DNA from: Bdellovibrionota bacterium
GTDB lineage: Bacteria; Bdellovibrionota_C; UBA2361; JAAYZI01
NCBI GenBank assembly: GCA_050950765.1
Contig: JBMNIF010000001.1
Location: forward strand, 32,001 to 96,000
DNA: 64,000 bases
Direction: 5' to 3'
Below the pieces are notes generated by a model, which did not search any database, was not told the origin of the DNA, and saw only the letters and a list, made by a program, of their open reading frames with translations. A program made the translations under genes and the position numbers. The number at the start of each line of letters is the position of its first letter. Position 1 is the first letter of the stretch. This document shows positions 1 through 5,297 of this stretch, piece after piece.

Positions 1-1149
1 GCACTTTCGATAACTACAAAACTAACACCGCATGAACTTTTAAAAGGTGTTAAGGAGATTGAGTCTGAATTAGGTAGAGCTTTTAAAGTGGGGCAACGGT
101 GGGCACCACGTCCGATAGATATCGATCTCTTACAGTGGGATGATCTGCAGATAAATACGCCTGAATTAACGATTCCGCATATAGGTTTGTTAGAACGTCC
201 CTTTGCGTTGTTACCGCTAGCAGATCTTTATGAGGGTGCAGGTGCTGTGACACCTCTCGGGAAAGAGCAGATTGAAAGGTGGAGAGGTGCTAAAGATGTG
301 CCGTTTTCAACTGTGCGCAGAGGTTATCTTTATCCGTCGTGGGTTGGTATCTTAAATCTTACCCCTGATTCTTTTTCTGATGGTGGAGTGTGGCAAGATA
401 GTGCTCTTGAACACGCTGAAGATCTTATTGCAGCGGGGGCTGATGTAATTGACATCGGTGCTGAATCAACTAGACCTAAGGCGAAGTTGATAACACCTGC
501 TGAGGAGTGGAAGCGTTTAGAAAAGATCTTGCCCTTGCTGAATGAAAAGATACATAAAAAGGGCGCTATTGTTAGTATTGATACTTATCATCCAGAGACA
601 GCAGAGCGGGCGATAGCGCTTGGTGTAGATTGGATCAATGATGTTTCAGGACTTGTATCTGAAAAGATGTTGCAAGTTATTGCAGCAAGTGCTGACGTTA
701 AGTATGTTTTGATGCACGCTCTTTCTGTGCCGCCCAGCTCGGATATAGTGCTAGCTGATGATGTAGATCTCTTCTCTGAAATATCTACTTTTTTTGAGGG
801 AAAAATTGAAGCGCTGGAGAGGTGTGGCGTTTCGCGGGAGCGAGTTATCCTTGATCCAGGTTTGGGGTTTGGGAAAAGTGTTGCTCAAAATATGGATCTC
901 GTCAGGCACGCTGAAAGATTACATCAATCTGGGCTTGGATTGCCGCTTTTATATGGGCATTCAAGAAAACTATTTATTAAAGATGGTTTAAAATGTGCTA
1001 CGAGAAATGAACTCGATATAGAGACTGCGGCGATCTCCTGTGAATTAGCTTTAAAAGGGATCGATTATATAAGGGTGCACGATGTGGCGTTAAATGCAGA
1101 AACGCTCCATCACTTCAGTGCTTGCAATAAAATTTGTCGTTATACCTAA
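1..1149 (+). CDS. folKP: Bifunctional HPPK/dihydropteroate synthase (FolK-FolP), 5' end outside window
   Basis: Frame is open from base 1. HPPK motifs WAPRPIDIDLL and LTIPH..ERPF; DHPS motifs GILNLTPDSFSDGG, DIGAESTRP, DPGLGFGK, GHSRK, RVHDV. Confidence 0.93.
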   Translation, partial: ALSITTKLTPHELLKGVKEIESELGRAFKVGQRWAPRPIDIDLLQWDDLQINTPELTIPHIGLLERPFALLPLADLYEGAGAVTPLGKEQIERWRGAKDVPFSTVRRGYLYPSWVGILNLTPDSFSDGGVWQDSALEHAEDLIAAGADVIDIGAESTRPKAKLITPAEEWKRLEKILPLLNEKIHKKGAIVSIDTYHPETAERAIALGVDWINDVSGLVSEKMLQVIAASADVKYVLMHALSVPPSSDIVLADDVDLFSEISTFFEGKIEALERCGVSRERVILDPGLGFGKSVAQNMDLVRHAERLHQSGLGLPLLYGHSRKLFIKDGLKCATRNELDIETAAISCELALKGIDYIRVHDVALNAETLHHFSACNKICRYT

Positions 1150-1162
1150 ATTTTAAGCACAC

Positions 1163-1350
1163 TTTTTAAAAGCTTTTAGCTGAAGGTGGTGTCGTAGATA
1201 TTTCTAAGAGCGCTTTTAAAAAACTTCTTCTTCTACACAGTGAAGAGAGATTATAATTTTGATTTTTTAGCGCAGACAGTTTTTTAAAAGCTTTTAGCTG
1301 GAGGTGGTGTCGTAGATATTTCTAAGAACGCTTTTAAAAAACTTCTTCTT
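1163..1350. repeat. Two ~70-bp direct repeats (1163-1232, 1281-1350)
   Basis: TTTTTAAAAGCTTTTAGCTGRAGGTGGTGTCGTAGATATTTCTAAGARCGCTTTTAAAAAACTTCTTCTT occurs twice. Confidence 0.9.
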
Positions 1351-1464
1351 ATATTTCAAAGCCAAAAACTTCAAAAAGTTCGGAAGTTAAGAATGGTGTG
1401 CTCTGTTTTAATATAGGTTTTGATATAGGTTTTTAATATGGAAGGAGAGGAGGTTCACTTTAAA

Positions 1465-1509
1465 TGGAGCCGACCTGTCTATTTTAACAATAGAACAAAG
1501 TCGGCTCCA
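1465..1509 (-). terminator. Long hairpin downstream of ORF 1555-2031
   Basis: TGGAGCCGAC...GTCGGCTCCA stem; only a short U run follows. Confidence 0.55.
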
Positions 1510-1554
1510 CGTAACGTCCTTTCCCGCTAGGTCCGTTACTGTGTACGAATAACC

Positions 1555-2031
1555 TTAATTACGCACCGTGTCGCGCAGGACATATCCTTTGTAGTGCCGC
1601 TCGAAATCGGGGTCTCCGATACTTGTAATGATCGTAGCTTCTACTGTCGGATCGTCAAAGAGCGCAGCAAGTTTGCGCGGTAACTCCATCAGAGGCTTCG
1701 CTTGGAAATGGCGATACTCCTCATTAGAGTTGTAATCTTTCCACTCTCCTACGATAGAGTGCAACTTTGCGTACGCCGATTTCAGATCTTCAAGTGAAGA
1801 GCTTTCGATCAATTTAACCGCTTCTTCGAACAATGAAGGCTCTTCTTTTCCTCTGCCGTATATAACTAACGCTATTGCCAGAGGATCTAGAGGCTCTTTG
1901 CCTTCATAGTTTTGATGGATCGTTTCGAGTTTATAGTCGCCTTTTAAACGATTTGTCAGAAGATTTTTGGTAGGAAAGGGCCCCATGGACCAAGTCTTCT
2001 TGCCCTGCGGTCCTTCTGTGTCTTTGCTCAT
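1555..2031 (-). CDS. Hypothetical protein, paralogue of 3113-3592
   Basis: 158-aa ORF with AGGAG RBS. Shared blocks LDPLAIAL/IDSLGLAL, WKDYN/WSAYN, LPRKLAALFDDP/MPHKLAAFYKDP. Confidence 0.8.
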   Translation of the reverse strand: MSKDTEGPQGKKTWSMGPFPTKNLLTNRLKGDYKLETIHQNYEGKEPLDPLAIALVIYGRGKEEPSLFEEAVKLIESSSLEDLKSAYAKLHSIVGEWKDYNSNEEYRHFQAKPLMELPRKLAALFDDPTVEATIITSIGDPDFERHYKGYVLRDTVRN

Positions 2032-2078
2032 ATCTGTTCTCCTATATGGCGAGGTGAAAATAAAAGCCGGAGAATACC

Positions 2079-2516
2079 TTAAGAGGTATTCTTCACATTA
2101 AGAGCCGCATTAAGACGGCGTCGAATGGTAACACCCTTTTGCAGCCAGCGGTAATGAGCAACTAGTGCTTGGTAGCACCTTGCCTGCTCTTCTTCCGATA
2201 ATTCTGCAAGAATTTGAGCCGCTTCGGCTCTTAATTTGCGTAATTGAGAGTTAGAGAACTCTTTTGTTATGCAAATAATAGCCATCGCCAGTAGCGAAGA
2301 GTCAATTTCAGACGGTAAGATACCGTCTTCTACATATCTCCTTACGCTTTCCGGCAGGGGATATTTTCTCCGTAGTCGAGCGTAATACTCTGCGGTTCTT
2401 AAATCGTCTTCTAAGCGATCGCCTCTTGTCTTTCTAGGGACGACAAGCCTCAACAGGATAATGTAAGACCCCCGTATAAGCAAATACCATACAGTGGGTT
2501 GCCTTTTTTTGCGCAT
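2079..2516 (-). CDS. Hypothetical basic protein
   Basis: 145-aa ORF with GAGG RBS, lying between the conserved leader and ORF 1555-2031. Confidence 0.6.
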   Translation of the reverse strand: MRKKRQPTVWYLLIRGSYIILLRLVVPRKTRGDRLEDDLRTAEYYARLRRKYPLPESVRRYVEDGILPSEIDSSLLAMAIICITKEFSNSQLRKLRAEAAQILAELSEEEQARCYQALVAHYRWLQKGVTIRRRLNAALNVKNTS

Positions 2517-2569
2517 ACTTAATTCCTCATTATATGCGATGTTAATAAAACGGATAATTGGAAAAAAAG

Positions 2570-2795
2570 CCTAAACGGCATTCTCTCCAAACTAAAACCT
2601 CATAATGATATCGTCCTCTCGGATGGTATCGCGAGGAGAACAGAGAAAAACCTTTATATTAAAGTGAACTTCCCCGTCCTGATCAGTTTTACTCATCAGG
2701 ACAGGTAAGTTATCTCTTCTTCTGATAAAAAATATTTTTAAAGATCGGTCTAATTGTATACAACGATTGTACACGATAACTTTTGTGTTAATCAA
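2570..2795 (-). promoter_or_regulatory. Conserved structured leader, copy A, with sigma70-like promoter
   Basis: Homologous to 3645-3862. Hairpin at 2667-2711; TTGATT-N18-TACAAT on the minus strand. Confidence 0.6.
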
Positions 2796-2970
2796 ATTGT
2801 GTATTTTAGTCCTTATAACCGTAGCTTTTACTGTCCGCAATCGCTTCAAGTAAAAACAGTAAAATATTACACTTATTTTGATTGTTTCCCTTAGAGGTGA
2901 TGATTTAAGCGCGATACTTTTTTGCGTCTTCTTTTTTTTGAAATGGATGGGAGGGAGGTTCGCTTTAAAT

Positions 2971-3010
2971 TAAGCGCCGATTCTGCTTTGGAAAACAGAG
3001 TCGGCGCTTA
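2971..3010 (-). terminator. Long hairpin downstream of ORF 3113-3592
   Basis: TAAGCGCCGA...TCGGCGCTTA stem. Confidence 0.55.
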
Positions 3011-3112
3011 TTAAACCGTATTACACCAAAAGCATTGCGCTAATAGTGTGCAACCTCAATCTCCCTAGCGAATCCCGCAAAGCCTGCAAAGGAATCTCCA
3101 AAGTCTCACTGT

Positions 3113-3592
3113 TCAAGGCGTCTTAGGCTTAGGGATATACCTATACCGTTCAACCCTTTCCGTAAAATATTGATCGTCGACACCATTGACGATCTCATTT
3201 ATCAGTTGCGGATCTTTGTAGAACGCGGCAAGTTTGTGTGGCATTAGCACCAGATTCTTCGAGTATGCATGATATGGGTTTTGCGGGTTATAAGCGCTCC
3301 AATTTGTGACACAACCCACAATTATAGCCACGCACGTCGACACCGCCTCTTCTTTCGAGTGACGTTCGAGCATACTACACGCTTGTTTGTGCAGTGGATC
3401 ATCGTGTTCTGCCATGACAAGCGCAGCTAACGCCAGTCCTAGAGAGTCGATTTTTTCCGGTCTAGAGTTGCGTTTGAGAAATCCCACAGCAGGATCCTCT
3501 GAGTTACCAGTGGGATAGTGTCCTATGGTTTTCCACGCCTGGTATCCGGTGTTGGCGTTCGTGGGCGTTTCGCCCGTTTTTCCCGTGTCCAT
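3113..3592 (-). CDS. Hypothetical protein, paralogue of 1555-2031
   Basis: 159-aa ORF. RBS context GCCATATAGGAGA is identical to that of the paralogue. Confidence 0.8.
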   Translation of the reverse strand: MDTGKTGETPTNANTGYQAWKTIGHYPTGNSEDPAVGFLKRNSRPEKIDSLGLALAALVMAEHDDPLHKQACSMLERHSKEEAVSTCVAIIVGCVTNWSAYNPQNPYHAYSKNLVLMPHKLAAFYKDPQLINEIVNGVDDQYFTERVERYRYIPKPKTP

Positions 3593-3644
3593 ATTATAGT
3601 CTCCTATATGGCATTGTGAAAATGAAGTAGAAACTAGAGAAAAA

Positions 3645-3862
3645 CCTAATAGGCATCCTCTAAACTAAAAACCTCACAAAAATATTGCGAGGGGGGATAG
3701 AGGACACTTTGATAAAAGAAACCCTTATATTTAAAGTGAACTTCCCTGTCCCGATCAGCTTTACTCATCAGGGCAGGTAAGTTATCTCTTCTTCCGATTA
3801 AGTAATATTTTTAAAGATCGATACCATTCTATTAATTGTATACTATTACTTTTGTTATTCAA
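3645..3862 (-). promoter_or_regulatory. Conserved structured leader, copy B, with sigma70-like promoter
   Basis: Homologous to 2570-2795. Hairpin at 3739-3783; TTGAAT-N16-TACAAT on the minus strand. Confidence 0.6.
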
Positions 3863-3944
3863 ATTAAAAACGGCGCTCACCTACTTTTTTACATAAAAAC
3901 GGAAAGGAGTTCCAAAAAAGAGCTTTTTATGAGATGCTTGGAGG

Positions 3945-5297
3945 ATGGAAAATATTAGAAATAAAAAGAATATTAGTATATTAGCCCTCTTTCTAGTCTC
4001 TATAAGTGTAGCTCTAGCTGCCTGCAATCTTTTTAAGCAAAAACAACGAAATGTTATAGTTATCTTAATTGATACCCTTAGAGCTGATCATTTGAGCATG
4101 AACGGCTACCAAAGAGAGACCTCTCCTGTAATTGATAATTTTGCTGCGGAAAATCTGAATTTTAAGTGGGCGCTAGCACCTGCACCGTGGACACCTGCTT
4201 CGGTTGCCTCTCTCTTTACGGGGCTTTACCCTTCAGCGCACGGGATGGTTCCACCTAATAGCCGCGATACTGCTATAAAACACTCGGTCAGGTTGCCATC
4301 TAAGTGGCAAACTATGGCGGAAACCTTTAAAAATAACGGTTATTATACAGCGGCGTTCTCTTCAAATCCGTGGATTCAAGAACTATTCGGTTTTACACAA
4401 GGCTTTGATCTCTTCGGCTATAAGGAGCGTGCAGAAGCTGCGGTATTGACGGCTAAGGCTAAAGAGATCGTTCAGAAATGGCGTGAGACAGAAAAAGAAA
4501 AACCACTTTTTATGTATCTGCACTATCTAGATCCGCACAATCCGTACTCTCCGCCTGCTCCTTATAATACTAAGTTTTCCGGCACCGTAGAGGGACGGGT
4601 ATATCCTAAAAAACAGCAGGAGTTTATCAATCAGTACGATGGAGAAATTCTCTATACAGATACTGAAATAGGAAAACTTTTCTCGTTTTTGAAGGAAGAG
4701 GGCATATACGATGATGCCGTTATTATACTGCTCTCAGATCACGGGGAACAATTTATGGAGCGAGGTCATCAGGGGCACGGTTTTGATCTCTATAATGAAG
4801 AGGTGCATGTGCCGCTAATCGTAAAAGCTAACGGTAAAAAGGGGACTGTCTCCGATTTTGTTAGTGCAATTGATATTTTTCCGACCATCATAGAGCTTCT
4901 TAAATTAAAAGATCCGCCTCCGTTTTTACAAGGCATCTCTCTTTTTAATTCAAAAGAGCTTTCAAAACGTGCAGGTGTTCTGTCTGAAATAAAACGTTTA
5001 AAAAATCAGAAAAGTCTAACCTTTAAAGATGGGAAAAAGGCTATCTTTGAATTTTCGATTGATGAGCCTTATCGAATGGATCTGCCACTACCGCACTCAA
5101 AGCAATTGATGTTTGATATATTTAATGATCCTATGGAAAGTTCTCCTTTATCAGATCCTACTTTAGCAGAAGAGAGAAAGGGGTCGTTCCTTGAAATTTA
5201 TAAAGGTGTGCTTTCCTCTAAAGCTGATGAGAAGGATAGTCAGATTAAGATGGATGATAAAACAATTAAAGAGCTTAAGACTTTGGGGTATATGTAA
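3945..5297 (+). CDS. Sulfatase-like hydrolase (alkaline phosphatase superfamily), probable lipoprotein
   Basis: IDTLRADH, WTPASVASLFTG, HYLDPHNPY, SDHGE, C-terminal LKTLGY; LAAC lipobox. Confidence 0.88.
   Translation: MENIRNKKNISILALFLVSISVALAACNLFKQKQRNVIVILIDTLRADHLSMNGYQRETSPVIDNFAAENLNFKWALAPAPWTPASVASLFTGLYPSAHGMVPPNSRDTAIKHSVRLPSKWQTMAETFKNNGYYTAAFSSNPWIQELFGFTQGFDLFGYKERAEAAVLTAKAKEIVQKWRETEKEKPLFMYLHYLDPHNPYSPPAPYNTKFSGTVEGRVYPKKQQEFINQYDGEILYTDTEIGKLFSFLKEEGIYDDAVIILLSDHGEQFMERGHQGHGFDLYNEEVHVPLIVKANGKKGTVSDFVSAIDIFPTIIELLKLKDPPPFLQGISLFNSKELSKRAGVLSEIKRLKNQKSLTFKDGKKAIFEFSIDEPYRMDLPLPHSKQLMFDIFNDPMESSPLSDPTLAEERKGSFLEIYKGVLSSKADEKDSQIKMDDKTIKELKTLGYM

Follow-up and report, generated by a model that had tools for sequence, protein, structure and literature searches.

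In a 64,000-nucleotide (nt) stretch of a Bdellovibrionota genome (contig JBMNIF010000001.1, positions 32,001 to 96,000; hereafter the window), two tandem cassettes on the minus strand, A (~1420-2910) and B (~2925-4097), each carry a short motif in the leader and an inverted copy of it in the tail, and the full-length messages are predicted to fold such that their extreme ends pair with one another. We tentatively propose, rating it as possible though somewhat short of probable, that the cassette mRNAs are closed by this terminal helix of 17-19 base pairs (bp), and that the helix sets or protects their ends, as in the hbs mRNA of Bacillus. Pairing between the two ends of one and the same message has been described for few bacterial mRNAs, which come from a handful of model organisms. 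In the present case the pairing would involve the extreme termini, it was inherited by two paralogs, and the genes that it encloses change more quickly than the untranslated regions (UTRs) around them.

The 15-mer GGARGTTCRCTTTAA is present without a mismatch at 1449-1463 and 2954-2968 on the plus strand and at 2659-2673 and 3731-3745 on the minus strand, that is, as two leader copies (minus) and two inverted tail copies, with one leader/tail pair per paralog; 17-mer forms of the motif stand at 1449-1465 and 3729-3745. An earlier reading of this DNA from its letters alone (the sequence-only reading) had pointed to the leader/tail complementarity, which is real and was placed correctly to within 1-2 nt. 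On the minus strand, the leader motifs occupy 2659-2675 in A (GGGGAAGTTCACTTTAA) and 3729-3746 in B (GGGAAGTTCACTTTAAAT), and the tail motifs 1449-1465 in A (ATTTAAAGTGAACCTCC, with conservation extending to ~1429 as CCTCC..TCCAT..AAAA) and 2954-2970 in B (ATTTAAAGCGAACCTCC). As had also been noted, both tails follow a stable hairpin, at 1464-1510 in A (GGAGCCGAC...GTCGGCTCC, directly preceding the tail motif; -28.1 kcal/mol, z -6.1) and at 2971-3010 in B (-25.2 kcal/mol, z -7.2), both on the minus strand; hairpin A is followed by no T-run, and the terminator search made no call there.

When the whole genome was searched for GGARGTTCRCTTTAA with at most one mismatch (five contigs, 2,644,825 bases; the assembly is 94% complete), six matches were returned, namely the four exact copies and two one-mismatch matches that are unrelated and lie on another contig, and no further copy of the motif, the leader or the tail was found in the genome beyond the two tandem units. 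Motif copies were not found clustered in any of 123 other genomes of the phylum, the leader was absent from 90 other genomes of the order (best E 0.008), and none of 40 related genomes held a relative of ORF158, one of the cassettes' orphan open reading frames (ORFs). Scans of metagenomes and of viral sequences for further copies gave no matches, and a 21-mer scan of a genome collection gave two, both in Bacteroidota metagenome-assembled genomes that lack the motif. The search for further leader/tail pairs that the sequence-only reading had recommended yielded strain variants, which keep leader and tail around unlike ORFs, and no clustered motif or leader in the scanned genomes of the phylum and order, respectively, and cassettes of this kind are so far limited to one species and its strains.

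Further support comes from the ends of RNA contigs. At least part of the stretch is contained in 20 public runs, six of which are RNA libraries, and we compared the RNA runs X12 and X13 with the DNA runs X7 and X14. These RNA-level hints come from environmental samples of an uncultured bacterium, and X12 and X13 belong to two studies with the same year and habitat label, possibly to one campaign. All runs were analysed as assembled contigs; absent contig cover was not counted as evidence and only coincident stops were used. At the outer edge of leader B, RNA contigs stop at 3746 in X13 and at 3744 in X12; the corresponding stops are 2954 and 2953 at the outer edge of tail B, and 2669 and 2664 in leader A. 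Three of the four motif copies thus have stops within 0-10 nt of their outer edges. At 3746, 2669 and 2664 the contigs run directly into Illumina adapter, which marks these positions as genuine fragment ends, and DNA run X7 reads across all RNA stop positions (records 26, 28). In the prediction G3746 pairs with C2953, and so, to the resolution that contigs allow, the arms form the two termini of the cassette B RNA; both fall within the span that RNA contigs cover, as complementary segments of its 5' and 3' UTR. The same contigs bound the 5' UTRs at 2517-2675 (A) and 3593-3746 (B) on the minus strand. All three adapters are of the read-1 type and lie on the high-coordinate side, as would be expected of minus-strand RNA, provided that the libraries were made by the common dUTP (deoxyuridine triphosphate) protocol. 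The RNA runs have no contigs over 1100-1527, 2705-2918 and 3775-4300, and a back-joint of 2953 to 3746, as expected of a circular RNA, was not seen among the contigs, which would hardly show one.

In the predicted full-length folds, nt 1-18 pair with the last 18 nt with probabilities of 0.86-1.0 in B and 0.73-1.0 in A, forming a terminal helix of 17-19 nt with one A.C mismatch in A and two in B. Barring the tail from pairing raises the ensemble energy by 15.8 kcal/mol in B and by 17.9 kcal/mol in A. The folds and the contig stops together make an mRNA closed by 5'-3' pairing the better supported of the two alternatives that the sequence-only reading had left open, although the analogy with type I toxins by which it was introduced fared badly (see below). 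We also considered a longer inverted repeat or an extended RNase III stem reaching beyond the motif, which neither the duplex energies of the outer flanks (no better than those of shuffled sequences; p 0.47 in B and 0.14 in A) nor their local alignments (p 0.20, 0.013, 0.65, 0.29) support. As a separate observation on the 3' region, a conserved (A/G)AGGTT stands right after each stop codon (1545-1556 and 3045-3056, minus), and when the 3' region is folded alone it can pair with the GAACCT of the tail, to which it offers an alternative local partner.

Judged by their sequence, the two cassettes arose long ago by a tandem duplication. A relic of the neighbouring sulfatase gene (3945-5297, transcribed divergently from the cassettes) lies upstream of unit A: on the plus strand, 2804-2910 is ~73-75% identical to the start of that gene, and its translation, though interrupted by two in-frame stops, can be recognised as the N-terminus (~residues 12-52). 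The duplication therefore also copied the first ~40 codons of the sulfatase gene, the duplicated segment having run from the tail into the neighbour's coding region, and this dead 5' end marks the edge of the duplicated unit. ORF158 (1555-2031) in A and ORF159 (3113-3592) in B, both on the minus strand, are paralogs, as had been claimed, with 39 of 148 residues identical (26%, E 6e-13), 48% of nucleotides and 46% of third codon positions. Cassette A indeed carries an additional minus-strand orphan, ORF145 (2079-2516); the segment just before the start of ORF159 resembles that before ORF158 and not that before ORF145, and ORF145 was thus either inserted into A or lost from B. In the only genome of the same family, the sulfatase-like fragment with the best N-terminal match (53%), which is probably the ortholog, follows a gene for a 604-residue membrane protein, without a cassette; the remaining relatives are too distant for a comparison of synteny.

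The duplication has been conserved unevenly. Counted per 40-column window as identical over aligned positions, units A and B agree at 29/38, 29/40 and 23/32 in the sulfatase relic, at 27/34, 32/39 and 37/40 in the upstream region, at 27/38 in the window of the motif region, at about half in the windows of the ORFs, and at 24/35 and 24/32 in those of the hairpin and tail. The two leaders are 82% identical over 153 nt (126/153). Divergence in the ORFs thus far exceeds that of the relic, which is presumably neutral, and the contrast between conserved non-coding parts and diverged proteins that had been described is evident (73-82% for relic and leader against 48% DNA identity for the ORFs). This means that the cargo has been exchanged since the duplication or else that the flanks have subsequently become homogenised. 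The conserved leader itself, put at ~200 nt in the sequence-only reading, spans only ~150 nt, of which ~85 lie upstream of the RNA contig stops. At the other end, the tail core is identical between the paralogs at 16 of 17 positions in a 3' region that is otherwise ~50% alike and barely alignable, and the 3' hairpins of A and B have kept two pairs through changes on both sides, while in a related strain 3000 G>A mends the sole mismatch of 3' hairpin B. What lies beyond chance, in our view, is that both arms are retained in both paralogs, that the tail core is kept, that pairs of the 3' hairpin are compensated and that the arms coincide with the RNA contig stops.

In the mechanism that we infer from these observations, for strand, pairing in the cell and effect alike, each cassette would be transcribed from the minus strand into an mRNA of ~0.8 kb (B) or ~1.2 kb (A), the first 17-19 nt of which (GGGAAGUUCACUUUAAAU) would pair with the last 17-19 nt (AUUUAAAGYGAACCUCC) in a terminal helix that stacks beside the 3' hairpin. 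The helix would define and shield both ends, from 3' exonucleases as well as from endonucleases acting at the A/U-rich 5' segment, and would thereby set the stability of the message instead of masking its ribosome-binding site. The minus-strand ORFs of the cassettes have good ribosome-binding sites, in support of such messages. The 5' end could come from initiation at the G run or from an endonucleolytic cut at the base of the helix, and in the latter case transcription would begin at a sigma-70-like site ~85 nt upstream and the cut would follow. Such a site is kept in both units ~85-90 nt upstream of the RNA contig stops (TTGATT-18-TACAAT at 2766-2795 in A and TTGAAT-16-TACAAT at 3835-3862 in B, minus strand, both consensus matches only), and sigma-70-like sites are not enriched in the region (9 vs 5.5 +/- 2.7 in shuffles). 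RNase E/G and RNase III are present in the assembly, in which, at 94% completeness, RNase J has no match above the family cut-off; 5' exonucleolytic trimming is therefore an unlikely source of the 5' end, which would be a start site or the product of an endonuclease. Leader and tail would constitute a conserved frame, and the ORFs enclosed by it would change very fast or be exchanged between strains.

That the cargo is variable within a conserved frame is apparent from the strains. A related strain in the RNA runs matches leader B (3556-3746; five differences, one gap) as well as the tail and 3' region of B (2954-3126; six differences, one gap), with unlike sequence at ORF159; another contig shares 3658-3744 only, and one contig joins 1577 to 2002 and so omits most of ORF158. 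The suspicion of variable cargo was thus correct, strains keeping leader and tail and carrying unlike ORFs. An exhaustive profile search of 1.84 billion representative proteins recovered just three members of the ORF158/ORF159 family: P0001, 88% identical to ORF158; P0002, a fragment identical to ORF159; and P0003, 32% identical to ORF158, whose first 10 and last 7 residues are nevertheless those of P0001 bar one substitution each. ORF145 has four relatives (64-79% identity), all on short contigs, and against the related strain (2216-2516) it shows 22 residue-changing and three silent codon changes, giving a ratio of non-synonymous to synonymous polymorphism (pN/pS) of ~1.6 that is not significantly above 1 (p 0.29). 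ORF145 evolves without visible purifying selection. In the 5' UTR of cassette A, 1-2 of 148 positions differ between strains, compared with 24 of 301 in ORF145 (Fisher p 0.0007-0.004). We conclude that very fast protein change or allele exchange contributes to the contrast between non-coding parts and proteins no less than unusual constraint on the RNA does. A compensated frameshift near 2337-2342 was also noted in ORF145 between strains, the frame being kept in all five homologs.

The proteins themselves are orphans. Pfam, NCBIfam and PADLOC returned no match for the ORFs above a curated cut-off or at E <0.01, and a protein atlas gave none that was usable. ORF158 is predicted, with moderate confidence, to be soluble and all-helical (pLDDT, the predicted local distance difference test, 66), and its model has no fold match in the PDB at E <=0.001; the model of ORF145 (pLDDT 43) is too poor for a fold search. 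A weak match of ORF145 to the NCBIfam CRISPR-associated RpoE-like sigma factor (E 0.028, 14 bits vs a cut-off of 100) raised the thought of a sigma-like factor, which a profile comparison with the eight sigma-r4-containing proteins of the genome did not support (probability 0.1%).

Several observations weigh against closure of the messages by a terminal helix. The RNA evidence consists of contigs, which show neither strand, nor exact ends, nor 5' chemistry, and their coincident stops are a weak hint; the stops in leader A lie 4-9 nt inside the motif, such that part of the helix would be missing, and tail A has no informative RNA contig. Two differences between the leader and tail arms make A.C mismatches in minus-strand RNA and G.U pairs in plus-strand RNA (chance 1 in 4), and with only two copies and the strain variants available for covariation, the arm differences are uncompensated on the minus strand. 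The mean unpaired probability of the three Shine-Dalgarno (SD) regions is predicted to be 0.48/0.48, 0.62/0.61 and 0.37/0.43 with/without the terminal helix; accessibility of the ribosome sites being unaffected, the benefit of the helix is conjectural. The best-conserved block of the whole duplication, 3749-3788 (37 of 40 identical, exceeding the relic at p 0.013), moreover borders the RNA stop on its upstream side and is thus not part of the stable RNA. A terminal helix leaves this block unexplained; it could be a promoter or operator of an unrecognised type, or a part of the leader that is later cut off.

The remaining contrary points also bear on the question of whether the complementarity has any function at all. 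The two arms could be kept separately, the leader arm as a start region or part of the 5' UTR and the tail arm for 3'-end formation, with their match inherited from a chance repeat in the ancestor and perhaps helped by gene conversion of the flanks. The genome holds 90 inverted pairs of at least 16 nt at a spacing of 0.3-3 kb, ~2 per 64-kb window; a single inverted repeat of 16-17 nt is thus unremarkable by chance, and the two cassettes are one evolutionary event. The identity of the leaders is not significantly above that of the presumably neutral relic (81/110; p 0.095), the conserved tail block (~45 nt) is longer than its complementary part, and no complementarity was found past the motif. 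We nevertheless regard this explanation as unlikely: it would require both outer edges to coincide by accident with the RNA stops at 3746/3744 and 2953/2954, and the tail core is the best-kept part of an otherwise diverged 3' region. Quite improbable, to our minds, is the other alternative raised by the sequence-only reading, in which the motifs act as DNA, being inverted sites for a recombinase, a transposase or a regulator around an exchangeable module such as a miniature inverted-repeat transposable element (MITE), an integron cassette or a module with Xer sites. Inverted 17-nt sites do bracket each unit, the cargo varies among paralogs and strains between flanks that persist, and X7 contigs of another strain match only from 1411 upward or only up to 2944 and then turn into unlike sequence, a structural variation that begins 37 and 9 nt outside the tails. 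The idea nonetheless failed all tests that were run: a target-site duplication is absent, the flanks being different (..GGACAG / CTCCCA.. in B and ..GGACGG / TCTCC.. in A, by eye); the searches described above disclosed no further copies in the genome, none clustered in the 123 other genomes of the phylum and no leader in the 90 of the order; the three tyrosine recombinase (Phage_integrase) matches of the genome all lie on other contigs; its six RAYT-like elements end in unrelated sequence; and high conservation extends ~85 nt outside the leader arm. No joint indicative of inversion or excision was found in the two DNA runs, though contigs drop rare forms, and the motif lacks, by eye, the two-arm dyad of the Xer or attC kind.

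Both motifs might instead be the start regions of convergent transcripts, an mRNA starting from the leader motif and an antisense RNA from the tail motif, which overlap over the whole cassette. The symmetry of this arrangement explains contig stops at both outer edges, the best-conserved block would sit at -3 to -42 of the leader stop, a position proper to a promoter, and the differences between the arms are better accommodated by pairing in plus-strand RNA. On the plus strand, however, what precedes the tails does not resemble what precedes the leaders (three of the four comparisons not above shuffles, one with p 0.013), the promoter search made no call ahead of the tail motifs, the leader stop is, by eye, preceded by no match to a sigma-70, -54, -28, -32 or extracytoplasmic function (ECF) consensus, and the plus strand offers no fitting ORF or terminator, all of which leaves convergent starts very improbable. 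A coding role of the motif was likewise considered and rejected: after an ATG, all four copies can be read as ..EV(H/R)F(K/N)..; this ATG lacks a Shine-Dalgarno sequence and in the leaders lies upstream of the RNA stop, and all three differences in the first 12 leader codons change the residue, after which the frames part.

The closest working analogue of a terminal helix that protects mRNA ends is, by likeness of design, the hbs mRNA of Bacillus subtilis, in which a 14-bp helix of 5' and 3' UTR is described to modulate endonuclease cleavage of the leader (Braun, Durand and Condon 2017, PMC5737220). As far as that account goes, the cassettes resemble hbs in a long-range helix of similar size (14 bp vs 17-19 bp) between the 5' and the 3' UTR of a protein-coding mRNA, and a role in stability rather than in translation masking would fit the unchanged accessibility of the ribosome sites here. 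The cassettes differ from hbs in that their arms, according to the contigs, form the extreme RNA termini, in that their genes are fast-changing orphans and in that they are known from sequence and prediction; moreover, their organism shows no RNase J match above cut-off, no search for RNase Y having been made. Closure of the full-length mRNA by pairing of its 5' and 3' ends, linked to high stability, is also described for aapA1/IsoA1 of Helicobacter pylori and for hok/Sok (PMC5416894), and according to the same source mRNAs of this type have their Shine-Dalgarno sequence hidden by the pairing, become translated upon 3' trimming, encode a toxic peptide of <50 residues and are accompanied by a cis-antisense RNA. 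The cassettes do not look like such a type I toxin lock: their ORFs encode 145, 158 and 159 residues instead of peptides of <60, the accessibility of their ribosome sites is the same with and without the helix, and no antisense gene was found at the locus, the only candidate being a weak plus-strand promoter-like site at 3709-3737, in B only. In icaR, the pairing reportedly covers the ribosome-binding site, whereas in the cassettes these sites lie 140-650 nt from the leader arm. This mRNA of Staphylococcus aureus is described as pairing its 3' UTR with its own 5' UTR in the control of translation (PMC3868564). Compared with MITE-like transposons, the cassettes share the inverted arms and lack a target-site duplication, dispersed copies and a transposase with the same ends; and compared with integron cassettes, which have attC at the 3' side only, are promoterless and lie near IntI, they carry the motif at both ends and a conserved upstream region of their own in each unit.

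If the terminal helix were confirmed, the cassettes would provide a compact and mutable test case for how such a helix sets the ends and the lifetime of an mRNA, and would help to show in what way proteins that diversify rapidly can be housed in an untranslated frame that is itself conserved; otherwise, they would represent an ordinary old tandem duplication of orphan genes. One could go further and imagine a portable message frame, in which the terminal helix and the flanking hairpins are recognised as a unit and cut at the base by an endonuclease, such that every cargo receives the same protected ends, and in which the identical flanks serve as homology arms for the swapping of hypervariable ORFs between strains. 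This notion, which we consider distinctly unlikely, would couple a helix-defined signal for mRNA maturation to the exchange of alleles, and an RNase P-like cut would be one candidate for the endonucleolytic step, the organism having no detectable 5' exonuclease. RNase P cuts the precursor of 4.5S RNA in a manner that provides a parallel.

The two minus-strand cassettes are sandwiched between the sulfatase gene and, on the side of cassette A, a fused folK-folP gene (1-1149; Pfam HPPK and Pterin_bind). Just upstream of each leader motif stands a further minus-strand hairpin, at 2676-2702 in A (GTCCTGAT...ATCAGGAC, -16.2 kcal/mol, z -5.9) and at 3750-3772 in B (-11.2 kcal/mol, z -2.8), the latter inside the best-conserved block. 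In these hairpins, CUGAUGAG followed further on by GAA (3761-3768 and 2689-2696, minus) called to mind a hammerhead or other self-cleaving ribozyme, which was ruled out: no ribozyme family matched even at E <=10, and no stem II is possible by eye. A permissive Rfam scan of 1000-4500 gave nine matches, all at E >=0.42, far below the gathering scores and none of them a ribozyme, Rfam at gathering thresholds gave no match in the whole window, and ARAGORN called no tRNA or tmRNA gene. Within the 5' UTR of B, a terminator-like hairpin with a U-run (CCTCGCAA...TTGTGAGG TTTTTAGTTT; 3672-3692, minus) may be an attenuator; cassette A keeps the ..GAGGTTTTAGTTT part of this region without the same hairpin. 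The inverted-repeat scan also disclosed, on contig C2 at 955562-960609, two inverted insertion-sequence-like copies that are near-identical over 1579 nt and ~1.9 kb apart. Finally, the gap between folK-folP and cassette A (1150-1440) is filled by a non-coding repeat array with two 73-nt direct repeats (1163-1235 and 1281-1353) that are 96% alike and contain internal inverted AGTTTTTTAAAAGC arms, and many partial copies of this array are spread across all five contigs of the genome.

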